Source: an uncultured Candidatus Saccharibacteria bacterium
GTDB lineage: Bacteria > Patescibacteriota > UBA1384 > XYA2-FULL-43-10 > CAINNR01
Direction: 5' to 3'
DNA length: 64,000 bases
NCBI GenBank assembly: GCA_964425445.1
Contig: CAYRLY010000001.1
Location: forward strand, 5,537 to 69,536
The position numbers and the translations under genes were made by a program. The number at the start of each line of letters is the position of its first letter. Within the stretch, counting starts at the first letter, position 1. Below are positions 12,122 through 44,485 of this stretch, in pieces. A model generated the notes under the pieces. That model was not told the origin of the DNA, did no database searches, and was given only the letters and a program-made list of their open reading frames with translations.

Positions 12122-12230
12122 CACATTATCAAGAGAGACGTTAGGGAATTGGCCCATTGAGCGTCCAGCAACCATCATTCACATAAGAGTGAACGGTGCT
12201 AAGTCCAAGCCGGATGGCAAGATAATTATT
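12122..12230 (+). promoter_or_regulatory. SAM-I (S-box) riboswitch in the metK leader
   Basis: Match to the SAM-I core: UAUCAAGAGAGACGUUAGGGAAUUGGCCCAUUGAGCGUCCAGCAACC ... GGUGCUAAGUCCAAGCC. The P1 3' strand GAUAAUUAUU pairs with the 5' AUUAUC. Confidence 0.8.
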
Positions 12231-12259
12231 TATCACGCTTTTCTTGGCGTGATATTTTT
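12231..12259 (+). terminator. intrinsic terminator, expression platform of the SAM riboswitch
   Basis: atcacgc-ttttcttg-gcgtgat hairpin followed by a TTTTT run. Confidence 0.7.
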
Positions 12260-13450: not shown

Positions 13451-13460
13451 TAATCACGGA

Positions 13461-13490
13461 AAAAGCCAACAGAACACTGTTGGCTTTTTT
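13461..13490 (+). terminator. intrinsic terminator after metK
   Basis: gccaacag-aaca-ctgttggc hairpin followed by a T6 run. Confidence 0.7.
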
Positions 13491-13492
13491 GA

Positions 13493-13527
13493 TTGACAAT
13501 TTAAAAAAAATAACATACGATAATATA
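13493..13527 (+). promoter_or_regulatory. sigma70-like promoter for the GC-rich GHMP kinase gene
   Basis: TTGACA, spacer of about 17 nt, then GATAAT/TATACG-like -10 immediately upstream. Confidence 0.4.
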
Positions 13528-13565
13528 CGATGTTCCGAGATTACCAACAAGGAGACTGATAACTG

Positions 13566-14675
13566 ATGCCTAGAGTGCAAATAGTACAGCCTATGATGAC
13601 ACCGACCTTCTTGGGTTGGGCGGCACTTCGGGGTATCGATTGGGGGAAGTGGAGCGATGTCAAGAAGTTCTTGGAGCTGATTGGCTACGGCATGGTCTGT
13701 AACCTGTCGATGGTTCTCTCACCGTGGGGATCCGGAGGCAGGATGAAGGGAGTGGAAGTCGCAGCCCGAGTAATGCCTATGGCTAGGCAGCAGGGCCGAG
13801 TCATCGTCAACGCTGGTAGTGATCCGTCCTACGATGCCCTTGTGAGTGCAGCCGACCTAGCTGGTGGCCAATTCAATGTCAAAGAGCTGGTACTCTGCAT
13901 TCTCTCAATGTTGGATCTTGATCCACTTCGAGAGAACGATCTACACATCGATCTTATCTCGCCTGCACTGCCGGGTGCCTCGCTTGGTACATCTGCCAGT
14001 GTACTAGTCGCAATCTTGAGCGCCTTCCTTGGCGACAGTTACACGGCGGACGAGATTTGGCTGATGGCCTTGCGGGCTGAGTACGAGATTGCTCGCCGTA
14101 ATACTGGCAACCAAGATCATATCGCCGCTATTATGGGAGCCAGAGAAGAAATAAAGACTCCAGCCAGACTAATCACCATCAACGATCTCTTCGATGTGGA
14201 GATCGAACACTTGGTGGTAGGCCCCATGATCTCTGCCGTCCTGCCAAATACTCTGGTGTCGGTCATCGGGGCCCATGACAGCTCCGATACTCACCAGAGG
14301 CTACAGGACGAGCTCGAGGGCGATCCGGAAATGGCGCGGGACAAACTCTGCGCAATGCGCAACACCGCCGTCATGGCCGCCAACGCTTTTCGTAGCGATT
14401 CACCAGATCAGCTATTTGCCTCGATTGACGCTTTGCTGGCTGCTCAGCAGTCTTTGAGTACTGGCCTGATAGGACCGTTCCACTGGAAGATAATTCAGGA
14501 CGCCAGGGCATACGGAGGCTATTCCGGTGTGCCTGGTGCCGGTGGCGACGGGGGGTCAGTGATCACTGTTTTTCAGGAAGCTGACTCCATGAGATGTTTC
14601 GCAGAGTCGATTCAGCTGGCTTTGCCGGACATCCGCCTTTTCCAGGCCGGCTACCCCGGCATCAACTTCGTGTAG
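13566..14675 (+). CDS. GHMP-family sugar/small-molecule kinase on a GC-rich islet
   Basis: GHMP ATP-binding motif LPGASLGTSASVLVA; RBS AAGGAG upstream; composition and codon use differ markedly from the neighbours. Confidence 0.65.
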   Translation: MPRVQIVQPMMTPTFLGWAALRGIDWGKWSDVKKFLELIGYGMVCNLSMVLSPWGSGGRMKGVEVAARVMPMARQQGRVIVNAGSDPSYDALVSAADLAGGQFNVKELVLCILSMLDLDPLRENDLHIDLISPALPGASLGTSASVLVAILSAFLGDSYTADEIWLMALRAEYEIARRNTGNQDHIAAIMGAREEIKTPARLITINDLFDVEIEHLVVGPMISAVLPNTLVSVIGAHDSSDTHQRLQDELEGDPEMARDKLCAMRNTAVMAANAFRSDSPDQLFASIDALLAAQQSLSTGLIGPFHWKIIQDARAYGGYSGVPGAGGDGGSVITVFQEADSMRCFAESIQLALPDIRLFQAGYPGINFV

Positions 14676-14702
14676 TGACCCGTTGGTCACTGCCTCTCTT
14701 TT

Positions 14703-14733
14703 GTCCCGACACCATGTCGGGACACTTTTTTTT
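14703..14733 (+). terminator. intrinsic terminator after the GHMP kinase gene
   Basis: gtcccgac-acca-tgtcgggac hairpin followed by a T8 run. Confidence 0.75.
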
Positions 14734-14764: not shown

Positions 14765-16927
14765 ATGAAGGAATTTTCTATAAAAAGTTGGTTTAGAAAA
14801 TACTGGCCGCTTGTCGGCTATTTTTTGATTTCGATAATATTCCTCTATCCGGTTCTGATTCAAAGGGGAGTACCGTTTAAATATGATTGGCTTTGGCCCC
14901 TTTTTGATATGAATGAATATTGGCGGGTGATCGCCGACAAGAGTAGCTTTGGTCTGGTTTCATCACTTGGGAAATATGCCAATTCTTTCTTCGGCCTCTT
15001 TGGTTGGTTGCATATTTCGCCAAATATTGCCCTTAAAATATTTTTACTCCTGATCCATACTGCCTCTGGTTACGGTTTTTATCTCCTGGTTTCTAGAAGG
15101 ATCAAATCAGCCGCCGCTGCATTTATCGCCGGTATCGCCTACGCTTTTTCGCCCTATATATTTATTCGAACGATCGTCGGATTTATATATTCATTGATCG
15201 CTTATGCCTCATTGCCGTTTTTCTTAAATATCTTTATAAACCATAAGAAGAAAAAAATCCTTGATTTTCTGCTGATGGGTTTACTTTTTTCTTTGGTAGC
15301 TTCACAGATTCAGGCGGGGATACTTCTGGTGTTTCTGGTGATCGTCATCAGCTTCTCCGAGAGAAAGAAGATTGTATTTCGATTAAAAGAGCTTGTCCTA
15401 TTGTTAGCTTCTGTCTTGATCGTCGCTTTGCCTTGGATTATTTACCTTCTGTTTATCGGTGGCAATGTGCAACCCATTGATGGTGGGCAGGTGACGACGC
15501 TAAATTATATCGCCAATTTGCCTCATAGTTTGCGTAATGTATTGTTTTTCTCTGATCACATAATTACCAGGGATTACTTTTATTCATTTGCCAGAGAGCC
15601 GATAGTAATCATCGGTTTTGTTCTTTTTTATCTGGTTGCTCTATTTTCACTCTTCGATAAAAAGAACCGATCCCTCGTGCTCTCCCTGATAATTTCGACC
15701 TTGATAATAATTCCATTTTCTATCGGGCCGACCAAAATTTTCACCGGTTTTTACACCTTCGTCTTCAATCATCTTTCGCAGCTGGCTGTCTTTCGCGAAA
15801 CCTATCATTTCCAGTTTCTGCTCTCGTTTAACTTTATCGCCTTATTTGCCTTTGGCCTTTCGTATATTTTCAAAAATTTAAGCAACAAAAGACCCTTCTT
15901 CTGGCTGATAAAAGTAATTGCTGCCTCATCAATAATAATTGTGATTGCACCTTATTTGGGTCTTGATTATGCCGGCTATTTTCGCCTTCAAGAGATTCCA
16001 GATGAATACCATCAAGCAGATGAGTTTTTTCAAGAAAACGCCGACTATTGTAAAAAAGCTTATTACCCACCAAACTTGGGATTTGTCCGATTCGCTTCTG
16101 ACCCGACAGCAGAAACTAGTGCCTCAAACTCGGATATTATTGCTTGGGATTTTGGCTTGCCTCGAGTAACCGATGCCGCCTCAGTTTTGTCGATCGCCGG
16201 TGATGAAATGTATCAGCGCAATCATCTGACGTCACAATTTTTGGAATTTTCTGACAATGGTGAATTTGCCGCTCTGGCCAAGGAGCAGGGAGTTGACTGC
16301 GTCATCATCCGTGATGATCTTACTAGCTTATATTTTTTGGCGAATAATGTCTGGCGTGATCCGTCATTTGATGTTCGCTTGAAGTGGATGAATCAAGATA
16401 TGTTGTCATTGGCCGAAAGTAAGATCGGTCTTCGTCTTGATAAAAAATTCGGGGGCAAAATTTACCTTTATAAAGTTGAGTCAGATAAGAAATATGAGGC
16501 AAGTAGGTTGATCGATCAAGTTCCCGATGGCATAAAATTGCCAATTACTGATTGGGCGAATAATTATGATTGGTATACCGAGGGTTGGGCGAGGGGACGG
16601 TACAATTTTTGGCGCAAACACCTTTTTGCTCAACTTGCACAGGATTTTATTTATACAAACAAATCCGACTCCGAAGTTAGCGGAAAGATCGCCGAGAGCG
16701 GCTCCTATGACCTGGTAATTAGATATTTGGATGGAGGAGAGGAGGGGAAATTCGAAATCCGAATATCGAAATTCGAAACAATTATCGAGAAAAAATCGGG
16801 GGAAGAAAGACTTGTCGTCAAAAATCTTGGAGCGATTGATATCAAGAAAGGCGATACAATCACAATTAAAAATACATCTGGCGAGAACGCTATCGCCGAT
16901 CTGTTGTTGGTCGGGAGTAAGGAGTAA
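14765..16927 (+). CDS. large polytopic membrane protein with a C-terminal extracytoplasmic domain (YfhO/GT-C-like), hypothetical
   Basis: Start at ATG 14765 preceded by GAGGGAG. The ORF track start at 14594 lies inside the upstream GC-rich gene and terminator and is rejected. About 13 TM helices followed by a soluble domain of about 250 aa. Confidence 0.55.
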   Translation: MKEFSIKSWFRKYWPLVGYFLISIIFLYPVLIQRGVPFKYDWLWPLFDMNEYWRVIADKSSFGLVSSLGKYANSFFGLFGWLHISPNIALKIFLLLIHTASGYGFYLLVSRRIKSAAAAFIAGIAYAFSPYIFIRTIVGFIYSLIAYASLPFFLNIFINHKKKKILDFLLMGLLFSLVASQIQAGILLVFLVIVISFSERKKIVFRLKELVLLLASVLIVALPWIIYLLFIGGNVQPIDGGQVTTLNYIANLPHSLRNVLFFSDHIITRDYFYSFAREPIVIIGFVLFYLVALFSLFDKKNRSLVLSLIISTLIIIPFSIGPTKIFTGFYTFVFNHLSQLAVFRETYHFQFLLSFNFIALFAFGLSYIFKNLSNKRPFFWLIKVIAASSIIIVIAPYLGLDYAGYFRLQEIPDEYHQADEFFQENADYCKKAYYPPNLGFVRFASDPTAETSASNSDIIAWDFGLPRVTDAASVLSIAGDEMYQRNHLTSQFLEFSDNGEFAALAKEQGVDCVIIRDDLTSLYFLANNVWRDPSFDVRLKWMNQDMLSLAESKIGLRLDKKFGGKIYLYKVESDKKYEASRLIDQVPDGIKLPITDWANNYDWYTEGWARGRYNFWRKHLFAQLAQDFIYTNKSDSEVSGKIAESGSYDLVIRYLDGGEEGKFEIRISKFETIIEKKSGEERLVVKNLGAIDIKKGDTITIKNTSGENAIADLLLVGSKE
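16748..16778 (+). repeat. in-frame heptanucleotide tandem repeat (CGAAATC / CGAATAT / CGAAATT units) inside the membrane protein gene
   Basis: aaattcgaaatccgaatatcgaaattcgaaac, translated GKFEIRISKFETI. Confidence 0.6.
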
Positions 16928-16945: not shown

Positions 16946-18193
16946 TTAGACTCTAGTTCTTTTTCTCCGTCGAATGAGGATTATGAGGACTGCAAGGAGC
17001 GCAAGAGCAAGCACTCCGGCAGCGATGGTTATTATCAGATTATAATTTTTACTATCTTTAACCGCTTCAGCAACGCTTTTTGGTGGGTTTATATCATCCT
17101 CAGTCAAAATATTTATCGATCCACCTTTGGCTTGTGAGATTTCGAAGATAATCTCATCACTAACGGGTGTCAATACCTTCTCTTTCTGCCCTTGGACACT
17201 GAGTTTATAATGGCCGGCGGGTATAAAATAATCCATCTCGAGAGTGAAATTGCCATCCTCGTCAGACTCAATCTCAAGTTTTTTACCCTCTGGGAGTGCT
17301 GGCGTTGGGGTTAGAGTGATTTTAGCTAAATAATTTGGCTCGATGATTCCGGAGATCTTCAGCCCAGAGACGGTGCCATCATCAATCTTGTTTATAAAAT
17401 TTTCCATCTTCTCGATCTTGATCGATCTTGGTTTACTTAGATTCTCATCTACTTTCGGATCAGGCTCTTTGATATTTATCTGAAAATGGGTTGTAGAGCC
17501 CCAACCGTCAGCATTTTGCGCTCGAATATGAAAATAATGAGTCCCAACCGGTTGATTGTCATAGCTTGCAGAGGTGTTGGCTGATGTCGATTTTGCCGGC
17601 GGGGTTGTCGTTGCGTTTTGATCGAGAAGATAAGAAAATGCGGTGACACCAGATGCTTTCGTCCATGAAAGGTCAATTTTGGTTGCTTCGTAGGATTCTG
17701 CTGGATTTGGATGAGATGATGAAGTCACATTTATTGCTCCCGGAGGCGTTGGTGCTCGGGTAATTGAATAGGAAGCGCTTCCTGCACCGGTACCAACTTC
17801 GGCACCGTCATTCGCCATCCGCACAGAGGATACTGTCACCGCTCCGCTACCGACTCCGGTCGCTTTTAGTCTTATTGTCGCCACCCTCATCGAAGAGACT
17901 GCCGGCACCAGCATCCCCTTGAAGTGGCCCCCGTTAGCTGGGATTGAAATCCAAGTTGCTCCGCCAGCGGCGAAAGAAACAATCGATACCGGCCCAGAGA
18001 CCGATATTGTTCCCTCGATGGCATTAAAAGTTGCCCCCGAAGCATCAACAGTGACAGTAAATGTCTGACCGACGGTCACGTTTCCGCCACCAGAAGCATA
18101 AATACCGGCTGCTGCTGCGTTCATTGGCAATATTAGAAAATAAAATACACTCGAAACAGTCAGCATTGTCGAAATCAGTCTTTTCATCAGCAT
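16946..18193 (-). CDS. cell-surface protein with signal peptide, Ig/FN3-like beta-rich domains and a C-terminal TM anchor with basic tail
   Basis: N-terminal hydrophobic leader; Thr/Ser-rich beta repeats; C-terminal IITIAAGVLALALLAVLIILIRRRKRTRV. Confidence 0.5.
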   Translation of the reverse strand: MLMKRLISTMLTVSSVFYFLILPMNAAAAGIYASGGGNVTVGQTFTVTVDASGATFNAIEGTISVSGPVSIVSFAAGGATWISIPANGGHFKGMLVPAVSSMRVATIRLKATGVGSGAVTVSSVRMANDGAEVGTGAGSASYSITRAPTPPGAINVTSSSHPNPAESYEATKIDLSWTKASGVTAFSYLLDQNATTTPPAKSTSANTSASYDNQPVGTHYFHIRAQNADGWGSTTHFQINIKEPDPKVDENLSKPRSIKIEKMENFINKIDDGTVSGLKISGIIEPNYLAKITLTPTPALPEGKKLEIESDEDGNFTLEMDYFIPAGHYKLSVQGQKEKVLTPVSDEIIFEISQAKGGSINILTEDDINPPKSVAEAVKDSKNYNLIITIAAGVLALALLAVLIILIRRRKRTRV

Positions 18194-18223
18194 GAAATTA
18201 TCCTCCCAAAATTATTTTTTATT

Positions 18224-19204
18224 TTAGCTTCCCCAAGCTCCAGCTAATATCGACAGATCAAGAAGGTCGACAGTACCATCAGAATTTAGATCAGCATCGG
18301 CGTTATTGCCACCCCAGTGAGTTGCAATCAAGGAGAGATCTAGTAGGTCGACATTCCCATCACGGTTTGCATCGCCAGTTTTTCTTTCTGCTGGTGGCGG
18401 TGTATCAGAGACCAAAACTGGATATGGGACAGAAATATATTCAGGTATGGTATAAGCTTTCATCCAGCTTCCCTTGGTGTTTAAGAAACTCTCAATTTCC
18501 GCTGCGCTTAATGGGTTAGCATTTCGGAAATTATTGTCAGAAATAATGTTTGTTGACGAATAATCCCCACCGTTTGGTGTCCCACCCCACCAGGATATCC
18601 AGTTGGTGTAGAAAGATGACCCGGTATTATAAGAAGAATAATGGGGGGTGTATTTATAAAGTGCACAAGATCCGGCGTTGGCAGTAGCAATTGTTCCGCC
18701 ATCAACAGAAACGGAGTTATTTCCTTCGCAATAGGTTCCATTTGCTGGGTTGCCATCGCCAGCAAGGTTTCGAAGCTGGGCGGTTGCGTAGGCGATCTGC
18801 TGACCGACGCCGCCATAATTTTCGGCGCGGTATGAGTAATCCGGCTTGTTGTATTTAGTATCAGTACAGTCTGTGCCCAAGAGCAAACAATTCGCCATTC
18901 TTTCATCGTAGTTGTAGAAAAGAGGCCAAGCCCTGGTGGTGTCTGAAGACGGTTCGGATCTAGTAATTGCTGAGCTCTCTTTTTGCAGCATAATCAAGAT
19001 AAGCCTGGGATTTATGTCGTGTTGTGCTGACTCGTCATAGATCAATTGTGCAACAGTCTTATTAAAAAAGGTATCAATATAGGCTTGTCTGGCGTTAACG
19101 TAACGAAGCTCGACATGGTCAGCTAGCACTTTTATCGGCGCAATCAAAAACACGACCAGCAAAATTGCTACAATTAGACTGTAATTTTTTGTTTTTGCCC
19201 TCAT
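18224..19204 (-). CDS. secreted protein with a C-terminal double dockerin-type repeat
   Basis: Signal/TM leader; C-terminal DANRDGNVDLLDLSLIATHW ... DLNSDGTVDLLDLSILAGAW, a dockerin type I calcium-binding repeat pair. Confidence 0.6.
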   Translation of the reverse strand: MRAKTKNYSLIVAILLVVFLIAPIKVLADHVELRYVNARQAYIDTFFNKTVAQLIYDESAQHDINPRLILIMLQKESSAITRSEPSSDTTRAWPLFYNYDERMANCLLLGTDCTDTKYNKPDYSYRAENYGGVGQQIAYATAQLRNLAGDGNPANGTYCEGNNSVSVDGGTIATANAGSCALYKYTPHYSSYNTGSSFYTNWISWWGGTPNGGDYSSTNIISDNNFRNANPLSAAEIESFLNTKGSWMKAYTIPEYISVPYPVLVSDTPPPAERKTGDANRDGNVDLLDLSLIATHWGGNNADADLNSDGTVDLLDLSILAGAWGS

Positions 19205-27014: not shown

Positions 27015-27626
27015 GTGAGAATCAGCTGCGCTTTGTGGGTTTTAGCTATTGCGGCGGTTTCCTCCGCTGCTGATAGTCAAGTGGAGTTTCGGGGTGAGTA
27101 CTTCTTCAATCGTGATAGTTTCGACTTCTTTGAGCTCACTAATGAGCATTGGCCGGCGACGATCGAAATGCGGTTTTGCTCGCCTGATTCCGGGGGGAAG
27201 AACCGGCTTGGTCTCGCCTTTTCTTTGGGGTCAACACCAAAGATACATGAGAAACTGCGATTGGGATTGGCTTTTGACATCGACCCCAGAACGGTTGACC
27301 CGCTAAACCCTCATCGGGTGGATCGGGACAACCGATTCTACATCTATGGGAGATCAGAGTTTGATTGGGCTACCTTTCATCTCCTCTACCCGTTAGCCCA
27401 GAACTCCAAAGGACATGATTGGCATTGGCGGGTCGAGATTGATGACCTTCGGTACCCGATTCTGTCATCCGGTGACTTTGTTTCCAGTGCTATTGCTGAT
27501 GCCAGCTACAGCCCGGATCCTGATCTTGGGCTCGATTACAACTGCGGTTTGCGTTTCCAATACAAAGAGTATTGGATTGATGCAACTACCGAATGTTTCT
27601 CGGTTGGTGCCACGATTATCAGGTAA
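27015..27626 (+). CDS. GC-rich secreted hypothetical protein (GTG start, signal peptide)
   Basis: GGAGG 8 nt before the GTG; N-terminal MRISCALWVLAIAAVSSAA leader; aromatic-rich beta-like body. Confidence 0.4.
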   Translation: MRISCALWVLAIAAVSSAADSQVEFRGEYFFNRDSFDFFELTNEHWPATIEMRFCSPDSGGKNRLGLAFSLGSTPKIHEKLRLGLAFDIDPRTVDPLNPHRVDRDNRFYIYGRSEFDWATFHLLYPLAQNSKGHDWHWRVEIDDLRYPILSSGDFVSSAIADASYSPDPDLGLDYNCGLRFQYKEYWIDATTECFSVGATIIR

Positions 27627-35639: not shown

Positions 35640-36206
35640 TCATCCGCTAGTGACCTTCTGGGCCAGGCGGATGATCTCTGATAGAGGGTGGTGCCGACGC
35701 ATCCTCAGCACCGACCATGGGAGACGTATGTCTCTGGGTTCAGGATTCGAGGAGGTGCTGACCACCGGTGTTCCATCATTGGTCTCTTCAGACTCAGGGC
35801 CAGGCTCTAGATATGGGAGGTCGATTACCGGCATGCCATCCTCGGCCTCCTCGGGCGTGGTAGCGAAGACGATCAGACGTTTCTTGATCTCCTCGATCGT
35901 CTCGCCGGTGATCTTGGCGATCTTATCAAAAGGAATCAGATCGGTGACGACACCCGCCGGTACCGGTCCGCCGGAGGCAATATCCCCGGCATTGTGTTGG
36001 AGAAATACAACATCGCCAACACCGAGCCGGAAGGTGATCCGACTGGCGGCTCGAATCGCCACGATCTCCTGTTCTTTGCCACTTATATCGGGGAATGGTA
36101 TGAACTCTACTCCACAGTCGGCGGTTCCGATTATGGGGCTATCCGACACAACGACGATTCTACCTTTGCCCATTCCAAAGACTCCCTTCGGGGGATTCAT
36201 GCTCAA
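35640..36206 (-). CDS. GC-rich hypothetical protein (188 aa)
   Basis: Protein-like minus-strand ORF (GVFGMGKGRIVVVSDSPIIGTADCGVEF...). The overlapping plus-strand ORF is Ser/Arg/Pro-rich, as expected for a wrong frame in GC-rich DNA. Confidence 0.4.
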   Translation of the reverse strand: MSMNPPKGVFGMGKGRIVVVSDSPIIGTADCGVEFIPFPDISGKEQEIVAIRAASRITFRLGVGDVVFLQHNAGDIASGGPVPAGVVTDLIPFDKIAKITGETIEEIKKRLIVFATTPEEAEDGMPVIDLPYLEPGPESEETNDGTPVVSTSSNPEPRDIRLPWSVLRMRRHHPLSEIIRLAQKVTSG

Positions 36207-36308
36207 GATTTTTATAACATAATACTAAAAAATAGTCAATGGTTTTTTCGGTAACTGCCCCCATTACTATCATTATTTAGAGGATCTCTCGACAAAGCTC
36301 GAAATGTA

Positions 36309-43894: not shown

Positions 43895-44485
43895 CTAGTA
43901 GACGCGGGTCGGTGCTTCGGGTATCTCTCCAAGTGCCCGGAGCCGGCGCTGGTTGATCACCTCAAGAGTGATCCTTTTCCAAAGCGGAATCGGCTCAATT
44001 GATGGCACCCAAATGGAAGGGATTCCGAGTCGATTGGCTCCGAGGATGTCGGTGCCGAATTGGTCACCAACCATCAGCGTGTTATCTAGGGTAGCGCCAT
44101 CCATCTCTGACATCGCTATCTCCAGCGCTCGTGGGTTCGGTTTCGTTGGATGTGGCCAGTAGTGGGCGACATACTGACACTCAAGGGCTTCGGCTAGCTT
44201 CTCGATCCGTCTGGCCATGAACCACAATTGAGCGTTTGAGGTCAGGCAGATCTCCCAGCCGTTGTCTTGGGCAGCTCGCAGGTTTTGTGCGATCTCTTCC
44301 GGCACAACCATCTTGCAGATCTGTGTGATTGTGCCATCGACATCGAGCAGCAGCTTAGAAAGTCCTTGTTCTCGCAGCGCTTCGAAGTCAATCGAGGCGA
44401 CGCTGCGAGCCTGGTAAGTCGGGCGGAACCTTTCGATGCTTTGAGCCAACAGAATCACCCCTTCTGGGTTTTTGTTGTGCTGCAA
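43895..44485 (-). CDS. GC-rich HAD-superfamily hydrolase (YqeG-like phosphatase)
   Basis: LLDVDGTI motif I and MVGDQFGTDI motif IV; GC-rich, unlike the neighbours. Confidence 0.6.
   Translation of the reverse strand: MQHNKNPEGVILLAQSIERFRPTYQARSVASIDFEALREQGLSKLLLDVDGTITQICKMVVPEEIAQNLRAAQDNGWEICLTSNAQLWFMARRIEKLAEALECQYVAHYWPHPTKPNPRALEIAMSEMDGATLDNTLMVGDQFGTDILGANRLGIPSIWVPSIEPIPLWKRITLEVINQRRLRALGEIPEAPTRVY

Follow-up and report, generated by a model that had tools for sequence, protein, structure and literature searches.

A GC-rich gene for a predicted GHMP-superfamily sugar kinase as a probable allele-exchanging module of a conserved glycan locus in a Berkelbacteria-like bacterium

The 64,000-nt stretch of contig CAYRLY010000001.1 analysed here (the window) carries on its + strand, between metK and a gene for a GT-C-fold membrane glycosyltransferase-like protein, an open reading frame (ORF) of 369 amino acids (13566-14675) that Pfam, AlphaFold2 (AF2), Foldseek and family-profile searches place in the HddA/WcbL/Fkp branch of the GHMP-superfamily sugar kinases. 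With a probability of about 60%, we read this gene as encoding a GHMP sugar kinase which is expressed from its own promoter and forms a conserved module of a glycan locus, the alleles of this module being swapped by recombination. The kinase itself is an ordinary kind of protein from a rare, divergent clade of its branch; it would mark a conserved, separately regulated and allele-shuffled step of envelope-glycan synthesis in an uncultured Candidate Phyla Radiation (CPR) lineage. Surface glycans of CPR bacteria probably mediate host attachment and phage exposure.

The preliminary description of this DNA had assigned the protein to the GHMP family, and both profile and structure searches supported that fold. 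The N-terminal Pfam domain (PF00288, GHMP_kinases_N) scored 29.5 bits against a cut-off of 22.3, and an AF2 model built from an alignment of 99 homologues reached a pLDDT of 95 and a pTM of 0.93. When this model was compared with the PDB by Foldseek, structures 4usm/4usk of the Burkholderia heptokinase WcbL ranked at the top (E 2e-17, TM 0.74-0.80) and Fkp (9iip) was third-best (TM 0.74-0.76), with mevalonate kinases and galactokinases at lower ranks (TM 0.58-0.68). Altogether, 190 PDB matches were obtained at E ≤0.001, and all 50 of the 50 listed were GHMP-family kinases or putative members. The family profile gave the same order, with the HddA-like 3k85 at 2e-37, WcbL at 8e-34 and Fkp at 1e-24, compared with E-values of 1e-13 to 1e-22 for mevalonate kinase and galactokinase. 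A single-sequence search of the PDB found 3k85 at E = 0.41 only, so that it was reached just by family profiles. The clade is rare: about 10 clusters were present among 5.8 billion sequences, and a set of 1.84 billion representatives contained 8 at E ≤1e-89, or about 8 clusters when grouped at 50% identity. The name "heptose-7-phosphate kinase" that JGI records give to distant homologues is an automatic annotation.

The residues expected at a GHMP active site are in place. Motif I reads R22...D25.GKWSD31; motif II, PGASLGTSAS (residues 135-144), lies within residues 133-148, ALPGASLGTSASVLVA; and motif III is PGAGGDGGS (residues 323-331), with invariant Gly and Ala positions. Across the 99 sequences G141 and S143 of motif II were invariant, and G137, S139, T142 and A144 were at least 90% conserved. 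The catalytic pair is Q183-D184. In WcbL, mutation of R13, D22, S118-120, Q162 or D163 kills activity (PMC4691232), and in the window protein these essential residues correspond to R22, D31, S139/T142/S143, Q183 and D184, which a 25-sequence alignment shows to be invariant save for S139 (≥90%). Most of these residues are common to other GHMP sugar kinases as well, and thus they do not fix the substrate. Taken together, fold and residue conservation make it very probable that the protein belongs to the COG2605-type branch and is active as an anomeric sugar kinase. By analogy, it would phosphorylate a sugar or sugar phosphate at the anomeric O1 hydroxyl with the γ-phosphate of ATP, with D184 acting as base, R22 stabilising the phosphates, Q183 and D31 holding the sugar and motif II binding ATP.

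A sugar 1-kinase of the HddA/WcbL type is supported as the nearest functional model; the earlier suggestion of a sugar-1- or heptose-7-phosphate kinase agrees with these closest fold and profile matches. The window protein shares with HddA and WcbL the two-domain GHMP fold and the length class of about 345-370 amino acids, and with WcbL all essential residues, including a Gln where galactokinases have Leu; like it, they are encoded in surface-polysaccharide loci. It differs from them in motif I (GKWSD instead of GGGTD), in two clade-specific insertions in the N-domain and in a family-specific HDSSxxH motif. The kinase domain of Fkp from Bacteroides fragilis (PDB 9iip, 9iit, 5yys) has the same fold. 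As an anomeric sugar kinase of the salvage type, Fkp supplies surface glycans, the role that we propose for a scavenging CPR bacterium, but it is a 949-amino-acid bifunctional enzyme with a fused pyrophosphorylase domain, whereas the window kinase stands alone and matches just the kinase part (residues 583-947 of 5yys_A and 603-967 of 9iit_A). Galactokinase and mevalonate kinase share the fold and motifs I-III, and the Arg/Asp catalytic pair is as in galactokinase, but their matches are weaker than those of WcbL and Fkp.

The gene is bounded by transcription signals on both sides. At its left boundary lies the intrinsic terminator of metK (13459-13490, + strand), in which a perfect 13-bp inverted repeat (13460-13472/13477-13489) is followed by a T-run and which folds at -18.9 kcal/mol (z = -6.8). 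A σ70-type promoter follows at 13493-13521, with TTGACA at 13493-13498, a 17-nt spacer and TACGAT at 13516-13521. It scored 10/12 and so ranked with the best sites of the 5.2 kb covered by the scan; the scan by itself was weak (15 matches vs 10.6 expected by chance), but the promoter goes far beyond chance because it is conserved in 16 distinct loci. The ribosome-binding site (RBS) AAGGAG (13549-13554) precedes the ATG by 11 nt, GGAGG-type sites occupy the same place in all alleles, and folding predicted an unstructured 5' untranslated region (UTR). Downstream, a first terminator-like hairpin (14672-14693) overlaps the kinase stop codon and is followed by the main intrinsic terminator (14702-14733), whose hairpin (14702-14724) has the 10-bp stem TGTCCCGACA/TGTCGGGACA with 6 G-C pairs and a 3-nt loop, and then T8. 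Both hairpins together fold at -30.5 kcal/mol (z = -7.65 vs shuffles), and hairpins of the CCCCGAC...GTCGGGG type were present 3' of the kinase in most related loci. The private TTGACA promoter at 13493 with its AAGGAG RBS, and the strong terminator at 14703, all read from the window sequence earlier, were thus located again, and the promoter recurs in relatives. As judged from these signals, the kinase is predicted to be transcribed alone, from its own promoter to the double hairpin.

ATG 13566 is the preferred start codon over Met10 (13593), which JGI had called, because a GGAGG-type RBS precedes an N-terminal extension of equal length in all alleles and because the window and locus L002 share sequence in this extension (VQPM in the window, VNPM in L002). 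The sole other ORF of at least 60 amino acids inside the gene is a frame-shifted one of 60 amino acids on the + strand, and an overlapping gene was rejected. No Rfam family matched within the GC-rich ORF, which disposes of a structured RNA there, and a defence function found no PADLOC match for the kinase.

The only cis-regulatory match of the Rfam scan was an S-adenosylmethionine (SAM) riboswitch upstream of metK (12123-12228, + strand; RF00162, 52 bits vs a gathering score of 44.4). A terminator-like hairpin lies beside it at 12231-12254, and related loci have kept this leader as well. Since metK has this riboswitch and its own terminator, and the kinase its own promoter and terminator, the two genes form separate transcription units. 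This bears on the possibility that the kinase serves the SAM/methionine cycle, acting for instance on a ribose, methylthioribose or homoserine-type substrate, which would explain its position next to metK. The kinase directly follows metK in the window, L001, L006-8, L018, L020, L021 and L025, and the series metK-PfkB-AdoHcyase, the last encoding S-adenosylhomocysteine hydrolase, in L005; moreover, homoserine kinase is a GHMP member. However, besides the separation of the two units, metK adjacency is missing in L002-4, L024, L026, L029 and L030, and L014 and L016 yielded no metK by tblastn; glycan genes still stand beside the kinase in these loci. Homoserine kinase matched at 7.7e-07 as against 1e-24 to 2e-37 for HddA, WcbL and Fkp, and the sugar-binding residues of WcbL are conserved. 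We therefore give a role in the SAM cycle little credence.

The closest genome records for the kinase were metagenome-assembled genomes (MAGs) of Candidatus Berkelbacteria and one WS1 MAG, and from these records and the shared neighbours we infer the label Berkelbacteria-like for the window. Where the contig extends far enough, the kinase usually precedes the GT-C gene; it follows the GT-C gene in L024 and L029, a Wzy_C gene in L030 and other large membrane proteins in L002. Glycan genes neighbour the kinase in every long locus, and these neighbours include GT-C, Wzy_C, GT2, GT4, flippase, epimerase and LPG_synthase_TM genes. The same site is kept in relatives whose kinase is just 32-47% identical. 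Two loci showed further peculiarities: L026 (5855-6001), the upstream genes of which are 92-97% identical to those of the window, has no metK by tblastn, the module directly following the gene for the 226-amino-acid protein, and in L029 a HepT-like/Polbeta (MNT-type) toxin-antitoxin pair (1845-2623, - strand) lies directly after the kinase module.

The kinase ORF stands out by composition as well. Its GC content is 0.55 (GC1 0.60, GC2 0.44, GC3 0.61), while its 2-kb flanks have 0.39 and 0.41, as the preliminary description of a high-GC gene had it; the steps up and down coincide with the ORF ends, and most other window ORFs have a GC3 of 0.29-0.45. Such a profile invites the explanation that a foreign GC-rich cassette with its own signals was recently put between metK and the GT-C gene, and the earlier wording "inserted" and "acquired" implied as much. 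GC is raised at all three codon positions, the wider family resides mostly on GC-rich contigs (0.67-0.74), some of them labelled Acidimicrobiales, and in the WS1 bacterium a member of the clade is found at the native GC of that genome, 0.66. The relatives argue strongly against a recent arrival: where the alleles are only 32-47% identical, the kinase occupied the same position with the same promoter signature and GC excess, and it was GC-rich in 14 of 14 low-GC contexts (0.49-0.59, GC3 0.50-0.68, flanks 0.33-0.42). The promoter and 5' UTR are AT-rich and lineage-specific and do not occur with the WS1 copy, and the substitutions described below are unlike a decay toward host composition. No mobility genes were detected among the window ORFs and no target-site duplications were found, the flanking direct or inverted repeats being short, chance-level matches; neither a kinase relative nor the promoter pattern occurred in the viral contigs of IMG/VR, which speaks against a phage-borne gene. 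Recent acquisition is accordingly very improbable, and the notion of an insertion had to be abandoned. Instead, the module is, on the comparative sequence evidence, best described as a conserved part of the envelope-glycan locus of Berkelbacteria-like CPR bacteria and not as a private insertion. An old transfer into the lineage is possible; the wider family is found mostly on GC-rich contigs and the WS1 member at a native GC of 0.66. For annotation, the case is a caution: a sharp GC jump with private signals mimics a fresh insertion even where, as here, the lineage has long had the feature in synteny.

The most conserved non-coding sequence of the locus is a direct repeat, ATACGAT-AAT-ATACGAT, with a 10-bp period (13515-13531, + strand), which overlaps the -10 element and the transcription start predicted near 13528. 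Of 16 distinct related loci, 15 have conserved the -35 hexamer, its spacing and the -10 element, the consensus over Berkelbacteria-type loci being TTGACA, 16 nt and ATACGAT-(A/G/T)(A/T/G)(T/C)-ATACGA. Each of 18 Berkelbacteria-type loci had a single copy of the repeat, invariably placed just upstream of the kinase, and it was absent from the WS1 copy, from the sister clade in another low-GC genome and from viral contigs. It is unique within the window and occurs once per locus, and a wider regulon was rejected on that ground. Because it sits over the -10 element and the predicted start, has a 10-bp period and is conserved, the repeat is probably an operator that binds a regulator. In L001, a contig otherwise identical to the window, a run of 10 N (L001 ~1390-1400, window 13525-13532) falls exactly on the second ATACGAT copy, as if assembly or scaffolding had broken off at this repeat.

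Kinase alleles were deeply divergent (32-62% identity) and the clade tree resolved four groups, with the WS1 copy nested inside the clade. The window groups with L002 (62%), the flanks of which are unrelated to those of the window. Between the window and L018 the kinases were 42% identical, as opposed to 77% for the GT-C protein and 93% for the upstream 226-amino-acid protein; between L005 and L021, conversely, the kinases were 69% and the GT-C proteins 44% identical. At the DNA level, similarity between the window and L018/L020 extended through metK and the promoter to 13535, was lost over the 5' UTR and the ORF, and resumed at 14705 (L020) or 14793 (L018). L002 and L003/L004 were unrelated up to a point 4 nt upstream of the repeat, after which their identity was 100%. 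L018 and L020 were 100% identical over ~2550 nt and 79-96% identical from mid-ORF onward; an indel just downstream of the kinase is a further difference between them. The GT-C gene is likewise a strain-level mosaic, the window being 100% identical to L001/L017 up to ~15440 and 73-90% identical thereafter. The kinase locus is thus a mosaic produced by recombination, such as variable surface-glycan loci show, in which the trees of the kinase and the flanking genes conflict and crossovers lie at the promoter repeat, in the terminator region or inside the kinase gene. Hypermutation of the ORF in situ was rejected, as identity between close strains comes in blocks with sharp breakpoints and the trees of the genes disagree. 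A comparison of kinase divergence with a neutral expectation from the flanks was dropped because metK is also saturated at synonymous sites, and tree incongruence was used in its place.

Two independent junctions between identical or similar and unrelated sequence lie within a few bases of the repeat, one 4 nt upstream (L002 vs L003/L004) and one just downstream at 13535 (window vs L018/L020), and roughly 20 nt of conserved promoter are short for RecA-type exchange. Together with the exceptional conservation of the repeat, this could mean that repeat and terminator delimit a cassette moved by a site-specific recombinase, with ATACGAT as the recombination site and perhaps also as operator. But in none of the loci is the module accompanied by a neighbouring recombinase or integrase gene, the repeat is single in each locus, with no partner site at the right end, and the other GC-rich islands of the window lack it. 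Further breakpoints fall inside the kinase ORF and the GT-C gene, which fits ordinary homologous recombination, and a dedicated recombinase seems quite unlikely. The swapping of divergent kinase alleles between lineages by recombination, which we favour, resembles the replacement of alleles, within conserved flanks, at O-antigen and capsule loci in its divergent alleles, its trees conflicting with the flanks, its mosaics, its atypical composition and its glycan locus. It differs from these systems in that the variable unit is one cytoplasmic kinase gene with crossovers in its own promoter, and in that the GC excess appears maintained; O-antigen- and capsule-type loci are usually AT-rich, whereas the kinase module is GC-rich.

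Synonymous sites were saturated between allele groups (dS >2 or not computable), and GC3 was still 0.50-0.68. To estimate an equilibrium, synonymous changes were polarised among the close alleles L018, L020 and L022. In the kinase, 64 changes from G or C to A or T (S>W) were counted on 226 S sites and 34 in the opposite direction (W>S) on 79 W sites, which corresponds to per-site rates of 0.28 and 0.43, respectively. The implied equilibrium GC3, an estimate by three-taxon parsimony from recombining alleles and small numbers, is ~0.60 for the kinase, as compared with 0.41 for metK and 0.46 for the GT-C gene by the same method. The metK rate ratio predicts that 80% of the 98 kinase changes are S>W; 65% were observed (z ~-3.8). 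Thus, the GC richness of the kinase looks maintained and not decaying. The protein does not need GC-rich coding, since the sister clade in the other low-GC genome has a GC of 0.39 and a GC3 of 0.31, the composition of its host.

A single ancient transfer from a GC-rich donor to the Berkelbacteria ancestor, after which the excess faded slowly with no force maintaining it, would account for several features. Measured from WS1-like values (0.68/0.51/0.79), all codon positions have covered ~35-40% of the distance to those of the host, the spread of allele GC3 (0.50-0.68) looks like different stages of decay, and the implied equilibrium of 0.60 is below the current GC3 of 0.74 at the counted kinase sites, which indicates some decay under way. 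The saturation of synonymous sites at persistently high GC3, the excess of W>S over S>W rates with an equilibrium above that of metK and GT-C, and the sister clade at full host composition speak against a passive relic. So does an unrelated gene with the same persistent excess at a syntenic site, that of a YqeG-like HAD-IIIA phosphatase between tRNA genes (43895-44485, - strand; GC 0.55, GC3 0.63), the syntenic homologues of which in L031-L033 (56-58% identity) have a GC of 0.52-0.53 against flanks of 0.36-0.40. This phosphatase is unrelated to the HAD protein encoded beside the WS1 kinase. On balance, a fading relic is unlikely.

The GC excess could stem from codon or mRNA selection, from GC-biased gene conversion, from an old transfer that is ameliorating slowly, or from a GC-rich reservoir, the WS1 lineage for example, that is drawn on repeatedly. 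We can only tentatively suggest, with odds well below even, that Berkelbacteria-like genomes have for very long kept a few single-gene modules at a GC content ~15 points above their own, and that in the case of the kinase the repeat serves as exchange point for whole ORFs. Such modules, each with its own promoter and a GC-rich hairpin terminator, may comprise the kinase, the HAD-IIIA phosphatase and possibly two ORFs without annotation. If true, the long-kept excess would need an active force, i.e. codon or mRNA selection, or GC-biased gene conversion at recombination hot spots. Its occurrence in an unrelated gene also makes it a test case in which, for small AT-rich genomes, compositional selection could be told from biased gene conversion and from slow amelioration; we found no relevant literature on GC-rich genes in CPR genomes. 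The two unannotated ORFs are single GC-rich ORFs at 27015-27626 (+ strand, GC 0.50) and 35640-36206 (- strand, GC 0.56), each followed by a GC-rich hairpin terminator and without a Pfam, NCBIfam or PADLOC match. The former has a signal-peptide-like N-terminus; the latter is overlapped by an antisense ORF (35650-36222), so that its coding strand is uncertain. In L005, a small GC-rich patch (17001-17500, 0.55) without a counterpart in the window lies between TPR and UvrD genes, and no tRNA was found in it.

With respect to function, the most likely role of the kinase would be to make, by salvage or activation, a sugar-1-phosphate precursor for the glycan assembled by the neighbouring glycosyltransferases. 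That it feeds the adjacent glycosylation machinery had been suggested before; the glycan neighbourhood makes this plausible and is at the same time its sole basis. Several results weigh against the overall interpretation as a recombining glycan-locus sugar kinase. Of the two Pfam domains to which the preliminary description had pointed, the N-terminal one passed its cut-off but the C-terminal one (PF08544, GHMP_kinases_C) did not, with 13.8 bits against 21, although the C-domain of the model superposes on solved GHMP kinases. No NCBIfam model came near its cut-off, the best being mevalonate kinase with 18 bits vs 163, while galactokinase had 10.8 vs 509, and identity to solved sugar kinases, HddA and WcbL among them, is just 15-17%. 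A 1-kinase would require a downstream nucleotidyltransferase. The window ORFs scanned include no GmhA, no GmhB-type partner, no HddC or other nucleotidyltransferase and no pyrophosphorylase gene, and no SIS or NTP_transferase domain was detected in them or in related loci; the sole HAD-IIIA phosphatase of the window is the YqeG-like one, 30 kb from the kinase. Because the neighbours of the kinase in GC-rich genomes with the wider family are not glycan genes, the glycan link may be clade-specific or coincidental. Additionally, the case for the putative operator is made from position and conservation alone, ordinary homologous recombination at ~20 nt of conserved promoter would be inefficient, and the GC excess is left unaccounted for by allele exchange at a glycan locus.

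In the GC-rich genomes with the wider family (GC 0.73-0.74; L012 7444-8031 and L013), the kinase gene overlaps a preceding gene for a DUF4126 membrane protein. One protein, P0049 (436 amino acids), carries both the kinase and the DUF4126 domain, so that the two may be functionally connected in this branch.

The gene downstream of the kinase (14765-16927, + strand) encodes the GT-C-fold membrane glycosyltransferase-like protein, with an AftD-type N-domain (PF11847, 1.3e-10). An ORF caller had extended its start to 14594, overlapping the kinase 3' end and both hairpins. The preliminary description had dismissed this start as an artefact in favour of ATG 14765, rightly so: the JGI call on the identical contig L001 and all homologue N-termini begin at the equivalent position. 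Two surface-protein genes lie 3' of the GT-C gene (16946-19204, - strand), one encoding a protein with a C-terminal membrane anchor and the other one with a dockerin domain; their GC is moderately raised (0.45-0.46) and they show 59-69% identity in relatives.

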